In this document: one piece after another, positions 1 through 6,193 of the stretch
Layout of the letters: each line of letters starts with the position of its first letter
Numbering within the stretch: the first letter of the stretch is position 1
IMG/VR virus record: IMGVR_UViG_2693429700_000016
Direction: 5' to 3' (one strand)
Length of the DNA: 6,193 nucleotides
Source of the DNA: a virus
Lineage: Duplodnaviria > Heunggongvirae > Uroviricota > Caudoviricetes
Translations under genes and position numbers: made by a program
The notes under the pieces: generated by a model
Told to the model about the DNA's origin: nothing
Databases searched by the model: none
What the model saw: only the letters and a program-made list of their open reading frames with translations

Positions 1-79
1 CATATTCATCCTGACTTTCCAGAACCATACGAATCGCCCGCTGACGGACTTCGGGGGAAAAACGAGTATTTTTAGTCAT
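1..79 (-). CDS. IS3-family transposase OrfA, N-terminal fragment (continues past window edge)
   Basis: Own translation of minus strand from ATG 79-77 gives MTKNTRFSPEVRQRAIRMVLESQDEY with no stop to position 1. Candidate ribosome-binding site AGAGG upstream (revcomp of ~87-91). Confidence 0.8.
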   Translation of the reverse strand, partial: MTKNTRFSPEVRQRAIRMVLESQDEY

Positions 80-573: not shown

Positions 574-1569
574 GTGACCGTGAGAGCACTACTGACCCCT
601 GAAATTGCCCCGCGTATGGGGATCGTATTGTTCAGGCCAGGTTCAGAGCTGATGCCCCTGTTTATGCAGGGGCGTGTCCTGCTGGAGCCTGAGCCGGAAC
701 GTTACTCATCTTTCGCCAGTGGTGCCGTTCCGGCGGCATCACAACCGCTGGCGGATGATCCTGCCGTTCGGGCCGTGTTCCGCAATGAGGCAGTGATCCG
801 TCGTGCTGGTGGCGTGGAATGTCTTGAAAGCTGGTTACTTCGTGAAAAAGGCTGCCAGTGGCCTCATTCCGACTGGCACAGCGAGAACATGACCACAATG
901 CGACACGCTCCGGGCGCAATCCGTCTGTGCTGGCACTGCGATAACCAGCTGCGCGATCAGTTCACGGAATGGCTGGAATCAATGGCAACGGATAACTGTG
1001 CCCGCTGGGTGTTGTCTGTTGTGCGTCGGGATCTCGGTTTTGATGACAGTCACGTTGTGACAATGCCGGAACTGTGCTGGTGGTTGATTCGTAATGATCT
1101 GGCGGATGCCTTACCGGAAAGTGCAGCCCGTAAGGCACTGAGATTACCGAAGCCTGTTGTGCCATCTGTCACCCGGGAAAGTGACCTTGTGCCTTCGGTT
1201 CCTGCCACCAGCATCATCCAGGATAAAGCGAAAAAGGTGCTGGCGCTGAAAGTGGATCCGGAGTCGCCGGAGTCTTTTATGTTACGCCCAAAACGTCGCC
1301 GCTGGGTTAATGAAAAGTACACGCGCTGGGTTAAGACGCAACCGTGTGCATGTTGTGGAAAGCCTGCTGATGATCCCCACCACCTGATAGGCCACGGTCA
1401 GGGTGGAATGGGTACAAAAGCGCATGATCTCTTTGTGTTGCCTTTGTGCAGAAAGCATCACGACGAGCTGCATGCGGATACCGTGGCATTTGAAGAGAAG
1501 TATGGCTCCCAGCTGGAGCTGATATTTCGTTTTATCGATCGTGCGCTGGCAATTGGCGTGCTGGCCTGA
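574..1569 (+). CDS. DUF968-like prophage protein with C-terminal HNH-like Cys/His motif
   Basis: 331-aa ORF. C-terminus has C-x2-C-G ... D-P-H-H ... P-L-C-R-K-H-H-x-E-L-H spacing typical of HNH/zinc-finger nucleases. Position immediately upstream of Q is typical of DUF968 genes (ydfU-like) in E. coli prophages. Start is GTG at 574 or GTG at 580 (GAGG at 571-574). Confidence 0.7.
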   Translation: MTVRALLTPEIAPRMGIVLFRPGSELMPLFMQGRVLLEPEPERYSSFASGAVPAASQPLADDPAVRAVFRNEAVIRRAGGVECLESWLLREKGCQWPHSDWHSENMTTMRHAPGAIRLCWHCDNQLRDQFTEWLESMATDNCARWVLSVVRRDLGFDDSHVVTMPELCWWLIRNDLADALPESAARKALRLPKPVVPSVTRESDLVPSVPATSIIQDKAKKVLALKVDPESPESFMLRPKRRRWVNEKYTRWVKTQPCACCGKPADDPHHLIGHGQGGMGTKAHDLFVLPLCRKHHDELHADTVAFEEKYGSQLELIFRFIDRALAIGVLA

Positions 1570-1587
1570 TTTTTGTGGAGTAAGTTG

Positions 1588-1932
1588 ATGCGTGATATGT
1601 ATGAAGTATTGGACCGCTGGGGAGCATGGGCTGCAGCAGACAACAGTGGTGTGGACTGGCAGCCGGTAGCAGCAGGCTTCAAGGGGCTTTTACCTCATGG
1701 CAAAAAGTCACGGATTCAGTGTGATGATGACGAAGGCATTATGATAGACAGTTGTGTGGCTCGGTTGAGAAGGTATAAACCAGAGGAATATGAGCTCATC
1801 ATAGCCCACTTTGTTATTGGTATCTCATTACGCACTATTGCCAAAAAGAGAAGGTGCTCTGATGGCACTATTAGGAAGGAGTTGCAAACCGCAATCGGTT
1901 TTATAGAGGGGGTTGTAAGTATACTTGTGTAA
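1588..1932 (+). CDS. Q: Late-gene antitermination protein Q (short quuD-like family)
   Basis: N-terminus MRDMYEVLDRWGAWAA...AAGFKGLL...CDDDEG...CSDG resembles DLP12 QuuD-type Q proteins from memory. GGAG at 1577-1580 precedes ATG 1588; the ORF track's TTG at 1573 is less likely. Stop TAA 1930-1932. Confidence 0.8.
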   Translation: MRDMYEVLDRWGAWAAADNSGVDWQPVAAGFKGLLPHGKKSRIQCDDDEGIMIDSCVARLRRYKPEEYELIIAHFVIGISLRTIAKKRRCSDGTIRKELQTAIGFIEGVVSILV

Positions 1933-1940
1933 AATAATAA

Positions 1941-1959
1941 AAGGCGGTAGTACCGCCTT
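1941..1959. terminator. Perfect hairpin (AAGGCGGTA / TACCGCCTT) between convergent Q and cassette; likely intrinsic terminator for the minus-strand cassette
   Basis: Inverted repeat 1941-1949 / 1951-1959. On the minus strand it is followed by a U-rich tract (revcomp of 1929-1940 = TTTTATTATTTT). The plus-strand downstream tract is not U-rich. Overlaps the stop codon (1958-1960) of the last cassette gene. Confidence 0.55.
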
Positions 1960-2572
1960 AATGATCGAATCGTTGTATGTTTTCATGGAATCTACAAAAG
2001 TGAATAGATATTTTGAATAGTAAAATGTAGAAACCAACTTGACTTAAAGTTATGGCTTTGCATTTATCATTCAAGAGTTTTTGTAATTCTTCCGTTGGTA
2101 ATTGGTATACATCATCAAGAAAAACGATGCATTCTTCTAAGTTGTCTGATTCAGGAAGATAAAAAATATTAGTAATTAACTGCTTCCTTATAGCATCAAT
2201 TTTGCTATCTATTGAAGTCTTAGAAACTCCGTTGGAGAGAAGAATAGCTTCGAACTTAGATAAACTTACTAACGGAGCAAAGACTGCACGCATTGGCACA
2301 TCACGATTATTACTTGTATCTATATCGCAACTGTTGCTTAATATAATTCCTCGTGTTTTTTTAGTCCCTTTAATTGAATATACTGTAAGCTCCTTAAATA
2401 TATCTCCCTGAAGTGCAGCATTTTTCAGATCATCATGATAATTGGTAAGGTAGTAGTTAGTGTTTTCAGGGAAATCTCTAAGTGCATTTATTAGCCCTTC
2501 TTTTTGAGGAGCTGTTAAATAATATGGGATTTGATCTTTGAATTTCTCGATATCAAAAATGTTATTACTCAT
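1958..2572 (-). CDS. Cassette gene C: hypothetical protein (~204 aa), no recognisable motif
   Basis: Long ORF in strongly AT-rich DNA. ATG at 2572-2570 (alternative GTG at 2575-2573) lies directly after the TAA stop (2578-2576) of gene B, suggesting translational coupling. Ends at the terminator hairpin. Confidence 0.7.
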   Translation of the reverse strand: MSNNIFDIEKFKDQIPYYLTAPQKEGLINALRDFPENTNYYLTNYHDDLKNAALQGDIFKELTVYSIKGTKKTRGIILSNSCDIDTSNNRDVPMRAVFAPLVSLSKFEAILLSNGVSKTSIDSKIDAIRKQLITNIFYLPESDNLEECIVFLDDVYQLPTEELQKLLNDKCKAITLSQVGFYILLFKISIHFCRFHENIQRFDH

Positions 2573-2575
2573 CAC

Positions 2576-2920
2576 TTAATCCAAGTATAAATCCCACAGT
2601 GAAGCATGAACGACTTTATTTATTTCACTGCCTAAAGACACCTGGTTTGTTGATAATTTTTCATAAAAGTTTGTCATCGAGACTGCAAGTCTTTGATCAA
2701 CTGAGATTGTGCTCCCTGCTTTATATGTTTGTGTGATGGAATGAACTGAATCGGTAGTTGAAGACTTATACTCCAAAGCGTGATTTTTGACGATTAAACT
2801 TTGTTGAGGACCATGCTGTTGATTTTGGGCAATGTCTGTTAATGCTGTTATATGCAGACCATATAAAACCAAAGTTAATACTTGAAGTTGAGCTCGATAA
2901 ACATGATGAGACGGATACAT
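2576..2920 (-). CDS. Cassette gene B: small hypothetical protein (114 aa) with hydrophobic N-proximal segment
   Basis: ATG at 2920-2918 preceded on the minus strand by GGTGGT about 7 nt upstream (revcomp of 2921-2935 = AAATGGTGGTATGAT). Residues ~10-30 (AQLQVLTLVLYGLHITALTDIA) are hydrophobic. Stop abuts the start of gene C. Confidence 0.6.
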   Translation of the reverse strand: MYPSHHVYRAQLQVLTLVLYGLHITALTDIAQNQQHGPQQSLIVKNHALEYKSSTTDSVHSITQTYKAGSTISVDQRLAVSMTNFYEKLSTNQVSLGSEINKVVHASLWDLYLD

Positions 2921-2935
2921 ATCATACCACCATTT

Positions 2936-3685
2936 CTATTTGTAGGATGGTTCTAGTTCTTGAATTGTTGACTCTTTAAGGCAACTAAAGAAAGCTAATT
3001 TATTACAGGAGTGAAGATCATCAAGAATTTTTTTGGGTTCGTTTTTAAACTTATCTATTTCATCAGTATTAGTGATTTGCCTAATACTGTCTATGTCTAG
3101 GATTAGTCCTTTTTTATTAAATTCTCCATTATCTGACATGACTAAAGCATGAGATAATATTTGAATTATATTTAGAAATGCGCCTTCATTTTTATCGATT
3201 CTGATATTGATCGGATAATTAGACATAGACTCGCCAGCCATATTTAAGCTGACGTTTAGCTTATCAAATAAATTAGAATCGTCTTCTTTTGGGAAAAAAT
3301 CTACATACTTTAATGAGTAGCGGATGATGTTGTCATTTAAATTTAATTTGTTAAGCTCATTTAATACATGAATGATTTTTTCTCTAAAATGACTCCACCC
3401 TTGATATTTGGTGCTGGTGGATACAACAACACCATGGTCACTTAGTCCAATATAGTACCCTTCGATTTCGAGGCGACTGACAACTGCGTAATGTAATTGT
3501 TCATCTCCCTCACGAACATTTTTAGGTATTTGACTGGGTGGTAAACTAATTACTGGTTTTGTACAACCTAGAGCGTGAAAAAGAAACCCTGGAACTATTT
3601 CCGATATTTGTGTTTCTTTAGAAAAACGCATTTCGAAAGCAGCTTCGATTACTGGTTGTTTTGATAGAGATGTTGGAATGAGCAT
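2936..3685 (-). CDS. Cassette gene A: hypothetical protein (249 aa); N-terminal P-V-I-E-A-A-F-E-M-R-F motif resembles TIGR04255-type proteins of unknown function (recognition from memory, unverified)
   Basis: 750-nt ORF, AT-rich codon usage, ATG at 3685-3683, stop TAG 2938-2936 is 15 nt upstream of gene B start. The motif PVIEAAFEMRF plus later IIRYSLKYVDFF and GLILDIDSI blocks fit my memory of that family. Confidence 0.7.
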   Translation of the reverse strand: MLIPTSLSKQPVIEAAFEMRFSKETQISEIVPGFLFHALGCTKPVISLPPSQIPKNVREGDEQLHYAVVSRLEIEGYYIGLSDHGVVVSTSTKYQGWSHFREKIIHVLNELNKLNLNDNIIRYSLKYVDFFPKEDDSNLFDKLNVSLNMAGESMSNYPINIRIDKNEGAFLNIIQILSHALVMSDNGEFNKKGLILDIDSIRQITNTDEIDKFKNEPKKILDDLHSCNKLAFFSCLKESTIQELEPSYK

Positions 3686-3912
3686 TTAAAACCCATAGTA
3701 TGTTTTATGAGCTGATTGGATTTTGAGCATAGCTACCGCACGAATCTTCGAGGAAGATCCAAACATGTGCCTAATGTCGCATCATGCTCAAGGCGGCATA
3801 AATTTTGTTTACTGAGTATAAGATTAACAACCATTAACTTCCATCAAAAATGCTAACGCGTACGCAAAAACTATTGTATCGTGTTAAGAGTGGTCACTTC
3901 GCCACACAGCTT
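3686..3912. promoter_or_regulatory. Divergent control region: expected site of the cassette promoter (minus) and possibly the phage late promoter/qut (plus); exact elements not resolved
   Basis: Non-coding, compositionally intermediate stretch between the cassette start and the lysis leader. Only weak sigma70-like hexamers found by eye, e.g. TTAACA 3824-3829 with AAAAAT 3846-3851. Positional inference only. Confidence 0.3.
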
Positions 3913-3942
3913 AAACCCGCCGTCGAGCGGGTTTGTCGTTTC
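3913..3942 (+). terminator. Hairpin AAACCCGC-CGTCGA-GCGGGTTT followed by GTCGTTTCT: candidate tR'-like intrinsic terminator or late-leader structure upstream of S
   Basis: 8-bp GC-rich stem (3913-3920 / 3927-3934) with 6-nt loop and U-rich tail on the plus strand. Flanking GGTCACTTCG (3892-3901) recalls the lambda pR'-tR' leader from memory. Confidence 0.4.
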
Positions 3943-4085
3943 TGGACCCGGCTATTTGTTGAGCCTGGTCTATACCGCAGTTATCCATTGGCTCGGCCTC
4001 TTTTACGTTTCCGCTTCTGATTTGCGGTACATGATGTTCCCTCAATTTGCACCTCCTGTATTGGCGAGGTGAGAGATAACTACAA

Positions 4086-4412
4086 ATGCCTCATAACCCA
4101 AATACCTGGCTGGAGTTGGTCCAGAGCTGGTGGCGTGGAGACACACCGCTGGGCGCAGTGATTATGTCGATTGTTATGGCTGGTTTACGTATTGCCTATT
4201 TTGGCGGTGGTGGCGGCTGGAAGCGAAAAACACTCGAAATTCTACTCTGTGGTGCTCTGACGCTGACTTTTGCATCCGCTCTTGAGTATGTCGGATGGCC
4301 TAAATCACTATCTGTTGCCATTGGTGGTGGGGTGGGGCTGATCGGTGTCGATGCTATTCGTGGGGCTGCAATGCGAGTAATCGGTAACAAATTTGGTGGC
4401 TCTAAGGAGTAA
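4086..4412 (+). CDS. S: Holin (class I, lambda S-like three-TMD architecture, but a divergent allele)
   Basis: 108 aa. Three hydrophobic segments (about residues 22-39, 49-69, 75-91). Shares the LR..Y.GG...K and IG.D.I pattern with lambda S from memory. Immediately upstream of R; stop TAA 4410-4412. Confidence 0.8.
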   Translation: MPHNPNTWLELVQSWWRGDTPLGAVIMSIVMAGLRIAYFGGGGGWKRKTLEILLCGALTLTFASALEYVGWPKSLSVAIGGGVGLIGVDAIRGAAMRVIGNKFGGSKE

Positions 4413-4415
4413 TTT

Positions 4416-4892
4416 ATGCAGGTACTAAATTCCCAGCGTAAAGCTTTCCTCGATATGGTGGCTTGGTCAGAAGGAACGGATAACGGACGACAACCGACAC
4501 GTAACCACGGTTATGACGTTATTGTTGGTGGTGAACTCTTCACTGATTACTCCGATCACCCTCGCAAACTTGTCACGCTAAACCCGAAACTCAAGTCAAC
4601 AGCCGCCGGACGTTACCAGCTTCTTTCACGCTGGTGGGATGCTTACCGTAAACAGCTTGGCCTGAAAGATTTTTCTCCAGAAAGCCAGGACGCTGTAGCT
4701 CTGCAGCAGATTAAAGAGTGTGGCGCTTTACCGATGATTGATCGCGGTGATATTCGTCAGGCAATTGACCGTTGCAGCAATATCTGGGCTTCACTGCCGG
4801 GTGCTGGTTATGGTCAGTTCGAGCATAAGGCTGACAGCCTGATTGCAAAATTCAAAGAAGCAGGCGGAACGGTCAGAGAGATTGAGGTATGA
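4416..4892 (+). CDS. R: Endolysin R (lambda-type lytic transglycosylase)
   Basis: 158 aa. Sequence [81 protein letters not shown]... is near-identical to lambda R as I remember it. AAGGAG at 4404-4409. Confidence 0.95.
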
Positions 4893-5350
4893 GCAGAGTA
4901 ACCGCGATTATCTCCGCTCTGGTTATCTGCATCATCGTCTGCCTGTCATGGGCTGTTAATCATTACCGCGATAACGCCATTACCTACAAAGCCCAGCGCG
5001 ACAAAAATGCCAGAGAACTGAAGCTGGCGAACTCGACAATTACTGACATGCAGGTGCGCCAGCGTGATGTTGCTGCGCTCGATGCAAAATACACGAAGGA
5101 GTTAGCTGATGCGAAAGCTGAAAATGATGCTCTGCGTGATGATGTTGCCGCTGGTCGTCGTCGGTTGCACATCAAAGCAGTCTGTCAGTCAGTGCGTGAA
5201 GCCACCACCGCCTCCGGCGTGGATAATGCAGCCTCCCCCCGACTGGCAGACACCGCTGAACGGGATTATTTCACCCTCAGAGAGAGGCTGATCACTATGC
5301 AAAAACAACTGGAAGGAACCCAGAAGTATATTAATGAGCAGTGCAGATAG
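4889..5350 (+). CDS. Rz: Spanin inner-membrane subunit Rz (i-spanin)
   Basis: 153 aa. ATGA start/stop overlap with R. N-terminal TM segment ([16 protein letters not shown]) then coiled-coil-like region; near-identical to lambda Rz from memory. Confidence 0.95.
5109..5291 (+). CDS. Rz1: Spanin outer-membrane lipoprotein Rz1 (o-spanin), embedded in the +1 frame of Rz
   Basis: 60 aa. Lipobox VVGC and proline-rich [13 protein letters not shown]. Fully nested inside Rz as in lambda. Confidence 0.9.
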
Positions 5351-5381: not shown

Positions 5382-5675
5382 TTATTGTGAGCAATACACA
5401 CGCGCTTCCAGCGGAGTATAAATGCCTAAAGTAATAAAACCGAGCAATCCATTTACGAATGTTTGCTGGGTTTCTGTTTTAACAACATTTTCTGCGCCGC
5501 CACAAATTTTGGCTGCATCAACAGTTTTCTCCTGTCCAATTCCCGAAACGAAGAAATGATGGGTGATGGTTTCCTTTGGTGTTACTGCTGTCGGTTTGTT
5601 TCCAACAGTAAACGTCTGTTGAGCACATCCTGTAATAAGCATTGCCAGAGCGGCAGAAAACAACATTTTTTTCAT
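5382..5675 (-). CDS. bor: Bor-family outer-membrane lipoprotein (lambda bor-like)
   Basis: Minus-strand ORF; start chosen at internal ATG 5675-5673 (MKKMLFSAALAMLITGCAQQTFTV...) with AGGA about 8 nt upstream. Lipobox ITGC. Near-identical to lambda Bor from memory. The ORF-track N-terminal extension (5676-5723) is probably not translated. Confidence 0.9.
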   Translation of the reverse strand: MKKMLFSAALAMLITGCAQQTFTVGNKPTAVTPKETITHHFFVSGIGQEKTVDAAKICGGAENVVKTETQQTFVNGLLGFITLGIYTPLEARVYCSQ

Positions 5676-5858
5676 CTTATTATCCTGCATTGTTAAAAAC
5701 GGCAGAATCCTATGTGACAACAATTAAACGATAGTTAAATGGATTGATGAAATTTAAAACTATATAGGTGTACGGTCAGACTATTGGAGGTAGTCAGGAT
5801 TTGAATGTCAGTCTGTTGTCGGCATTCTGGCAATGCAATTTGGATAAAGCGGGGATTA

Positions 5859-6111: not shown

Positions 6112-6193
6112 TCAGGCTGCCAGATCATCGTTTCCGATGGAAGCATAATAAGCTTTTTCTGCTTCTGCCGGAGGAGTATGGCCCAGCCTTCCC
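6112..6193 (-). CDS. IS3-family transposase OrfB, C-terminal fragment (partial)
   Basis: Minus-strand frame gives ...GRLGHTPPAEAEKAYYASIGNDDLAA then stop at 6114-6112, about 42 nt inside the IS terminus. The TPPAEAEKAYY tail looks like IS3-family integrase C-termini. Frame choice is my judgement. Confidence 0.5.
   Translation of the reverse strand, partial: GRLGHTPPAEAEKAYYASIGNDDLAA

Follow-up and report, generated by a model that had tools for sequence, protein, structure and literature searches.

A TIGR04255 family gene of a lambdoid prophage heads a conserved three-gene cargo module with a candidate toxin-antitoxin-like function

What a gene carrying the function-less PGAP label TIGR04255 does in the late region of a lambdoid prophage, on the strand opposite to that of the Q antiterminator and holin genes, is the question raised by the 6,193-nt window (the whole stretch of DNA that was analysed). 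An earlier note, made from the sequence, had placed this gene (gene A) in the family and had suggested that it is prophage cargo co-transcribed with two partner genes (genes B and C). Here, we follow up these suggestions, and the analysis turns the label into a predicted 1.9-kb operon with a fixed architecture, invariant residues, and a strong candidate effector. The features of the window are as follows.

574-1569, plus strand: DUF968/HNH gene (window ORF)
1573-1932, plus strand: Q antiterminator gene (window ORF)
1941-1959, minus strand: intrinsic-terminator-like hairpin and T-run, AAGGCGGTACTACCGCCTT TTATTATTTT (terminator scan and direct sequence reading)
1958-2572, minus strand: gene C, 204 aa, ATG at 2572, with an alternative GTG at 2575
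2576-2920, minus strand: gene B, small protein of 114 aa, second cistron
2936-3685, minus strand: gene A, TIGR04255 family protein of 249 aa, first cistron, ATG start
3732-3760, minus strand: leader element, hairpin GGATCTTC-CTC-GAAGATTC (3760-3742) and then invariant CGTGCGGTAGC (3742-3732)
3815-3820, minus strand: -10-like box TATACT, about 130 nt upstream of the A ATG (alignments)
4086-4412, plus strand: holin S (window ORF)
4416-4892, plus strand: lysozyme, named glycoside hydrolase family 24 by PGAP in matching genomes
4889-5350, plus strand: Rz
5109-5291, plus strand: Rz1
5382-5723, minus strand: bor gene

Layout of the cassette and the sequence upstream of gene A

Genes B and C follow A on the same strand, as the earlier note had it, and the trio lies antisense to the Q and holin genes in the interval between them. 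The GC content of the cassette is 33.3%, compared with 52.0% in its flanks in the window. B starts 15 nt past the A stop and is preceded by GGTGG, and C starts immediately past the B stop. The terminator-like hairpin at the end of C is located between C and the converging Q gene. An Rfam search of the window gave zero matches.

The ribosome-binding site of A is indeed weak, GGG in 'tactatgggttttaaATG' being the sole purine-rich element upstream of the gene, and the 14-codon frame that had been noticed there, MLKIQSAHKTYYGF (3730-3686, minus strand), does end with TAA directly before the A ATG. This frame is the tail of a 26-codon ORF (3766-3686, minus strand), which was absent as a conserved feature from the Yersinia, Pantoea, and Klebsiella copies. 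Because it is not conserved in related loci, the upstream ORF is probably incidental, and the use of the weak ribosome-binding site together with this ORF as a regulatory device was ruled out, neither being conserved.

Every copy from the enterobacterial clade, whether in a prophage or in an island, has the leader hairpin and the CGTGCGGTAGC element. The sequence of the stem differs between lineages, and five of its seven pairs still pair through changes on both sides; the E. coli leader was predicted to fold with -32.1 kcal/mol (z = -2.56). This element may act as a regulatory RNA or an operator, or it may mark the boundary of the cassette. Farther upstream, the conserved TATACT box, at about which similarity to the Pantoea island copy starts, was tentatively assigned as the cassette promoter; the assignment is tentative because the two-hexamer promoter scan missed the site, for which no convincing -35 element was found.

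Two further features of the plus strand lie just 5' of the holin gene, a promoter-like site at 3824-3851 and a terminator-like hairpin at 3912-3950, which may represent the late promoter that depends on Q and the terminator belonging to it. Should the site at 3824-3851 be the late promoter, it would have the cassette between itself and the Q gene; the cassette would then not lie past the late terminator, where stx genes sit. Transposase-like fragments were also observed at both ends of the window (2-79 and 6115-6192, both on the minus strand). One is the N-terminus of an HTH_Tnp_1-type protein, by a weak match (E = 0.0011) under the Pfam cutoff, and the other, with a C-terminal peptide ending in GRLGHTPPAEAEKAYYASIGNDDLAA before the stop, presumably resembles the end of an IS3-family transposase. 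The prophage segment may thus be flanked by insertion sequences in the source genome.

Family membership of gene A and conservation of the trio

The profile search against NCBIfam that had been proposed as a check gave a full-length match of A to TIGR04255.1, far past chance, with an E value of 2.6e-27 and a score of 96.2 bits, three times the curated cutoff of 30. The match spans A residues 7-244, corresponding to profile positions 2-251 of 252, and the blocks on which membership had been proposed, PVIEAAFEMRF, IRYSLKYVDFF, and GLILDIDSI, are residues 11-21, 121-131, and 193-201, respectively. The length of A, 249 aa, fits the size of the family (about 250 aa), and its occurrence is sporadic, as in the family: 92 of 5,426 complete E. 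coli genomes have the identical cassette, and a pattern scan for partner C, using one genome per species, found it in 149 of 185,579 species, scattered over several phyla. In those 92 E. coli genomes, PGAP labels A as 'TIGR04255 family protein' and B and C as 'hypothetical protein', so that the name is not new for A. The divergent A homologues all exceed the cutoff as well (49/49); since they score just 69-153 bits, they may be one branch of a wider family. A also matches PHROG 5464 ('unknown function'). For TIGR04255 itself, an uncharacterised subfamily model (NCBIfam 'sporadTIGR04255'), our searches found neither a function nor a genomic context on record; the present analysis places a large clade of it as the first gene of a fixed three-gene operon.

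The existence of this three-gene module is near-certain. When loci were collected by their C gene, A was directly upstream on the same strand in 79 of 80 genome loci and in 47 of 48 IMG/VR viral contigs, the latter set including loci with very divergent A. The lone exceptions were a 1.7-kb genome contig cut off upstream and a viral contig cut at its end. B was detected between A and C, by a 7-sequence profile, in 73 of the 80 genome loci, and in 45 of the 48 viral loci. Distant C homologues, namely, those of Allochromatium, Candidatus Symbiobacter, a magnetotactic Desulfobacterota member, and Klebsiella-type prophages, were all preceded by an A homologue of 249-251 aa and a B homologue of 114-118 aa. 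Most of this sampling was anchored on C, and the claim covers a large clade of TIGR04255. From the side of A, the neighbourhoods of family members, which the earlier note had pointed to as a place to look, carried B-like and C-like genes in every context found (9/9), including those of Yersinia, Pantoea, two Bacteroidales clades, and the Pseudomonas phages Dobby and VW-6S, and the trio was present on a 15-kb Phocaeicola plasmid, of which A is 27% identical to that of the window. The A-anchored viral scan recovered E. coli-type loci only. Thus, the family does have a defined context, and it is broader than had been proposed, the trio being kept across phyla and mobile-element types.

The arrangement of the genes is also conserved. 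In 71 of 100 distinct trios, B begins, with its ATG, exactly 8 nt before A ends, and B and C are mostly 1-11 nt apart; the sizes are about 250 aa for A, 110 aa for B, and 205 aa for C. The gene spacing, the single terminator, and the widespread 8-nt overlaps are consistent with the suggested co-transcription, and, as judged from these sequence features, the trio is predicted to be an operon with translational coupling. In several metagenome-assembled genomes, A or C is split (L023, L054, L094, and L118); because this could reflect decay or long-read frameshift errors, no inference on tolerated gene loss was drawn. One Arenicellales genome (L093, 5851-7654) has an insert of about 1.8 kb separating A from B. 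The E. coli plasmid p4D31-5 (CP085522; L174, 3950-4700) has a degraded, stop-ridden copy of A, which is either a pseudogene remnant or the product of an error-rich assembly. GenBank annotation was found to be faulty in two phages, A being called too short in both Dobby (MK034952; L095, 1090-2786) and VW-6S (MF975720; L096, 4983-6644), in the latter of which part of B is named 'integrase XerC'. N-terminally extended A homologues were considered as domain fusions and set aside, as they look like mis-called starts instead.

The taxa bearing C are Alpha-, Beta-, and Gammaproteobacteria, Desulfobacterota, Myxococcota, Bacteroidota, Muiribacteriota, and Binatota. Throughout the 149 species with C and all other loci fetched, the hosts that were identified are diderm (Gram-negative-type) bacteria, with none from Firmicutes, Actinobacteria, or archaea. 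This spread could reflect transfer barriers or an envelope-related function.

Predicted properties of the three proteins

C is the best-conserved member of the trio, with 469 homologues of 42-100% identity found by word search. It is predicted to have a MazF/CcdB-type fold, that is, the beta-barrel-like fold with a C-terminal helix of MazF, PemK, and CcdB, preceded by an N-terminal helical extension; the models of two of the proteins were built on shallow alignments of 16 and 24 sequences. The invariant polar cluster of C consists of S-N-x-C-D, N-x-R, and H-F-C-R, and the C-terminal helix carries the motif S-x-H-F-C-R. The conserved residues R90, S79, and N80, in a loop before strand 95-103 (pLDDT <50), could parallel the functional residues of these toxins, which are a catalytic Arg and Thr/Ser at the beta1-beta2 loop in MazF and gyrase-binding residues near the C-terminus in CcdB. 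Searches at the sequence level were negative: C and 24 homologues had no Pfam match at E <= 1, PemK/MazF and CcdB included, hhalign of the C profile with E. coli MazF gave a probability of 0.1%, a profile search of PDB gave nothing significant, and there were zero NCBIfam families and only PHROG families of 'unknown function'. On the hhalign and Pfam results, homology of C to MazF was rejected at the sequence level. We therefore keep C as MazF/CcdB-like at the level of the predicted fold only and do not class it as a member of these families.

B consists of a moderately hydrophobic N-terminal segment, a variable Ser/Thr/Asn-rich linker, and a conserved acidic C-terminal helix, in that order. 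The helix ends in LWDLY (...SLWDLYLD at the C-terminus in the window) or, in Bacteroidota, HFWDML, and the net charge of the last 35 residues is -2 to -7 in nearly all sequences, one having a charge of 0. B matches PHROG 5728 ('unknown function') and no Pfam, NCBIfam, or PADLOC family. The classification of B as a membrane protein was downgraded, since the mean 19-residue hydropathy of the N-terminal segment, 1.39 (at least 1.6 in 11 of 48 sequences), is too low for a confident transmembrane helix and the homologues have no positive-inside signal. A membrane anchor is thus doubtful, and a role of B as a two-ended adaptor appears at least as likely.

In the AF2 model of A (pLDDT 87, pTM 0.84), eight strands are flanked by helices, and the arrangement is pseudo-duplicated. 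Foldseek found no close relative among solved structures, TBP and AdoMetDC alone being returned at TM about 0.3; a profile search of PDB gave nothing significant, and a permissive Pfam scan of 39 homologues gave no consistent match. Across 114 homologues, the conserved polar residues are E18, R20, R58, R122, S124, K126, and D199, together with D83 and K229; the alignment of diverse A sequences was too variable for deriving DNA patterns. In the model, E18 and R20 are on strand 1, R122, S124, and K126 on strand 5, and D199 on strand 8, and their alternation along the strands suggests that the conserved Glu, Arg, Lys, and Asp residues share one charged face of the sheet. Such a face would point to ligand or nucleic-acid binding or to catalysis.

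Candidate function and the slots occupied by the trio

No match to A, B, or C was found at E <= 1 in PADLOC-DB v2.0.0, in which the TIR cargo of a sibling prophage in the same slot, used as a positive control, matched TIR-TM at 1.7e-57; as this is a 2023 release, there may be a more recent named system for the trio. A literature search for TIGR04255 and for the RefSeq accessions and PHROG ids of the trio found no mention. Compared with MazEF, Kid-Kis, and CcdAB, the trio is without sequence homology, C is twice as long and has the N-terminal helical extension and a Cys/His signature absent from MazF and CcdB, B is without a recognisable DNA-binding domain, and a third, larger, and obligatory gene, A, stands ahead of the pair. 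Tripartite systems of the HigBA-SecB type (toxin, antitoxin, and chaperone) have three co-transcribed genes, as is predicted for the trio, and in both a third protein could control a labile antitoxin, the latter carrying a hydrophobic or aggregation-prone segment. The trio differs from them in gene order and in all three families, and A has no SecB-like match among its structural neighbours; a chaperone role for A would be speculation. In contrast to the type III toxins ToxN, AbiQ, and CptN, C is not preceded by tandem RNA repeats, and the leader hairpin of the trio is upstream of A, clade-specific, and without an Rfam match.

Prophage exclusion cargo, such as lambda RexAB, P2 old/tin, TIR-TM, and 3HP, follows the same genomic logic in that it occupies accessory slots, and none of these has a sequence relationship to the trio. 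The 3HP system ('hp+hp+hp'), of which the validated construct pFR109 encodes proteins of about 335, 345, and 225 aa (Rousset et al, 2022; PMC9122126), was ruled out as the identity of the trio, the invariant motifs of which are absent from all supplementary sequences of that paper. A MazF-like Gabija variant was likewise ruled out. We class the trio as a candidate toxin-antitoxin-like or abortive-infection cargo module, the three families of which are apparently uncharacterised in the literature searched.

The positions of the trio bear on this class. In phages and prophages, it is present in the Q-holin interval (E. coli and Yersinia), where the B- and C-like genes follow A; in the nin region of Klebsiella-type prophages, on the strand opposite to that of the early operon; immediately past cI in VW-6S, in the same orientation as cI and in the position that rexAB has in lambda; and adjoining the portal gene in the P2-like phage Dobby. 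The Dobby site is the cos-proximal gpA-gpQ hotspot of P2-like phages, which has been shown to hold anti-phage systems (Rousset et al, 2022; PMC9122126). In Pantoea, the trio is in an integrase/ArdC/umuDC island. In one Bacteroidales clade, it is cargo of a small integrative element found at varied insertion sites, where it directly follows the integrase gene, and the sequence collection indexes one protein of this clade in 2,712 blocks. In a second Bacteroidales clade, the trio was seen in four backgrounds: three in which its neighbours are a type IIG restriction-modification enzyme and a PLD/SNF2 helicase, and one in which it lies next to a Schlafen/AlbA_2 gene. Conflict-system genes near the trio in other places include MazEF, ParE, BrnT, JetB/C, reverse transcriptases, and a PIN protein. 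In 71 of 72 genomes, the module has a lower GC content than its flanks, the mean difference being 12.9 points.

We give an even chance to a reading in which the trio is a conflict module of toxin-antitoxin-like type, most likely shielding the lysogen from other phages through abortive infection. This reading fits best because the operon is fixed and mobile, resides in exclusion or defence slots, and has a protein of predicted toxin fold after a small acidic protein; the tight operon geometry predicted from sequence, with the putative antitoxin ahead of the putative toxin, also fits the type II or tripartite toxin-antitoxin pattern. We infer, rather than observe, the roles of the three proteins. 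C would be the effector that arrests growth, with RNA as its target as in MazF or a protein as in CcdB. The neutralising tether would be B, whose acidic C-terminal helix may sit in the substrate groove of C like the tails of MazE and CcdA and whose N-terminal hydrophobic helix may dock on a partner. A would be a sensor or regulator controlling the release of C, with its sheet face possibly binding a phosphate-bearing ligand, nucleic acid, or phage protein. An independent but indirect hint in favour of defence comes from DefensePredictor, in Table S3 of which a TIGR04255 neighbour one gene away raises the defence score (mean SHAP 1.62, n = 9), the values being 1.43 for AAA ATPase and 1.49 for DEAD-box helicase neighbours (PMC13092281). 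The accessions and motifs of the trio are absent from the searched part of the supplementary text of that paper, in which the sequences of the tested proteins are complete. A more specific form of the abortive-infection reading is tentative, and we would lean against it: that the trio is a new and widely distributed tripartite system in which A, a new sensor fold, detects a phosphate-bearing or nucleic-acid cue by its charged sheet face and in this way governs the freeing of C from the acidic B. An effector site in C that contains Cys/His and is unlike that of MazF or CcdB, as this form implies, is a possibility to be held with the same reserve.

Among the alternatives, a pure addiction module, which stabilises prophages, integrative elements, and plasmids by post-segregational killing and has no phage-defence role, appears unlikely. 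Both the MazF/CcdB-fold prediction for C with a small acidic B and the copies beside the integrase of the small Bacteroidales element and on the 15-kb plasmid would suit it, as would the lack of a clear excess of defence genes right beside the trio. A crude sample, based on crude gene calls, covered 150 ORFs from the immediate flanks of the trio in 38 genomes; the commonest families in it were integrases, resolvases, and Rep proteins, about five proteins had PADLOC matches, and many neighbours were housekeeping genes. Defence-island enrichment is thus weak in this sample and was not relied on for the abortive-infection reading. Pure addiction does not account for the repeated presence of the trio in phage slots where exclusion or defence genes expressed by lysogens are known to lie, and many chromosomal copies beside housekeeping genes have no obvious target for stabilisation; besides, addiction and defence are not mutually exclusive. 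Even as an addiction module alone, the trio would count as a new tripartite toxin-antitoxin family.

It is less probable still that A is an active enzyme, such as a kinase or ligase that depends on ATP or a protein that modifies nucleotides, with B and C as its substrate, regulator, or immunity partners, in which case the module would not be built around C as a toxin. Phosphagen and protein-arginine kinases (McsB), Glu-Cys ligase, and TBP/AdoMetDC are like the model of A in that helices cover one side of a two-layer antiparallel sheet, the units follow a pseudo-duplicated beta-alpha-beta3-alpha order, and conserved charged residues alternate on the strands; the scores are in the twilight range, however, and A has no conserved catalytic motif, so that the resemblance is a fold-level lead, not membership. 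Quite improbable is a module that serves the phage, for instance through counter-defence, entry-step exclusion of close relatives, or control of the lysis-lysogeny decision, with no host-level immunity. The trio is frequent in prophages and isolated temperate phages, and its place directly after cI in VW-6S would be in keeping with such a role, but most of the 80 C-anchored genome loci are without phage genes among the immediate neighbours, the trio is also found on integrative elements, on a plasmid, and beside restriction-modification genes, and its position varies among phages, unlike that of a core regulatory function.

If the trio is a defence or toxin-antitoxin system, TIGR04255 becomes annotated, its clade that is very frequent among Bacteroidales of the human gut included; a system missed by both PADLOC-DB v2.0.0 and Pfam is added, with a MazF/CcdB-fold toxin under three-component control. 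Should the more specific form of the abortive-infection reading be true, this would be the first function for TIGR04255 and a new effector branch of the MazF/CcdB fold.

The suggestion that the cassette is prophage cargo is borne out by its base composition, its antisense placement between Q and holin, and the presence of other cargo in sibling prophages. Like a moron, it has an unlike base composition, its own terminator, and the character of a replaceable insertion, the promoter being tentative. Sibling E. coli prophages have the same DUF968/Q and holin/lysozyme flanks and other antisense cargo in the interval, at the following loci, equivalent to about 1940-4080 of the window.

L155, 1494-2309: the TIR-domain protein that matched TIR-TM of PADLOC
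L156, 1467-3333: a three-gene operon encoding 363 aa, a 105-aa STAS-like protein, and 153 aa

The Q-holin interval of this prophage group is thus a cargo-exchange hotspot, and, if the reading of the trio is true, it is marked as one worth mining. The STAS-like three-gene operon had zero PADLOC matches and may be another candidate system. In further relatives, an OmpC-like porin is annotated beside a QuuD-type Q gene.
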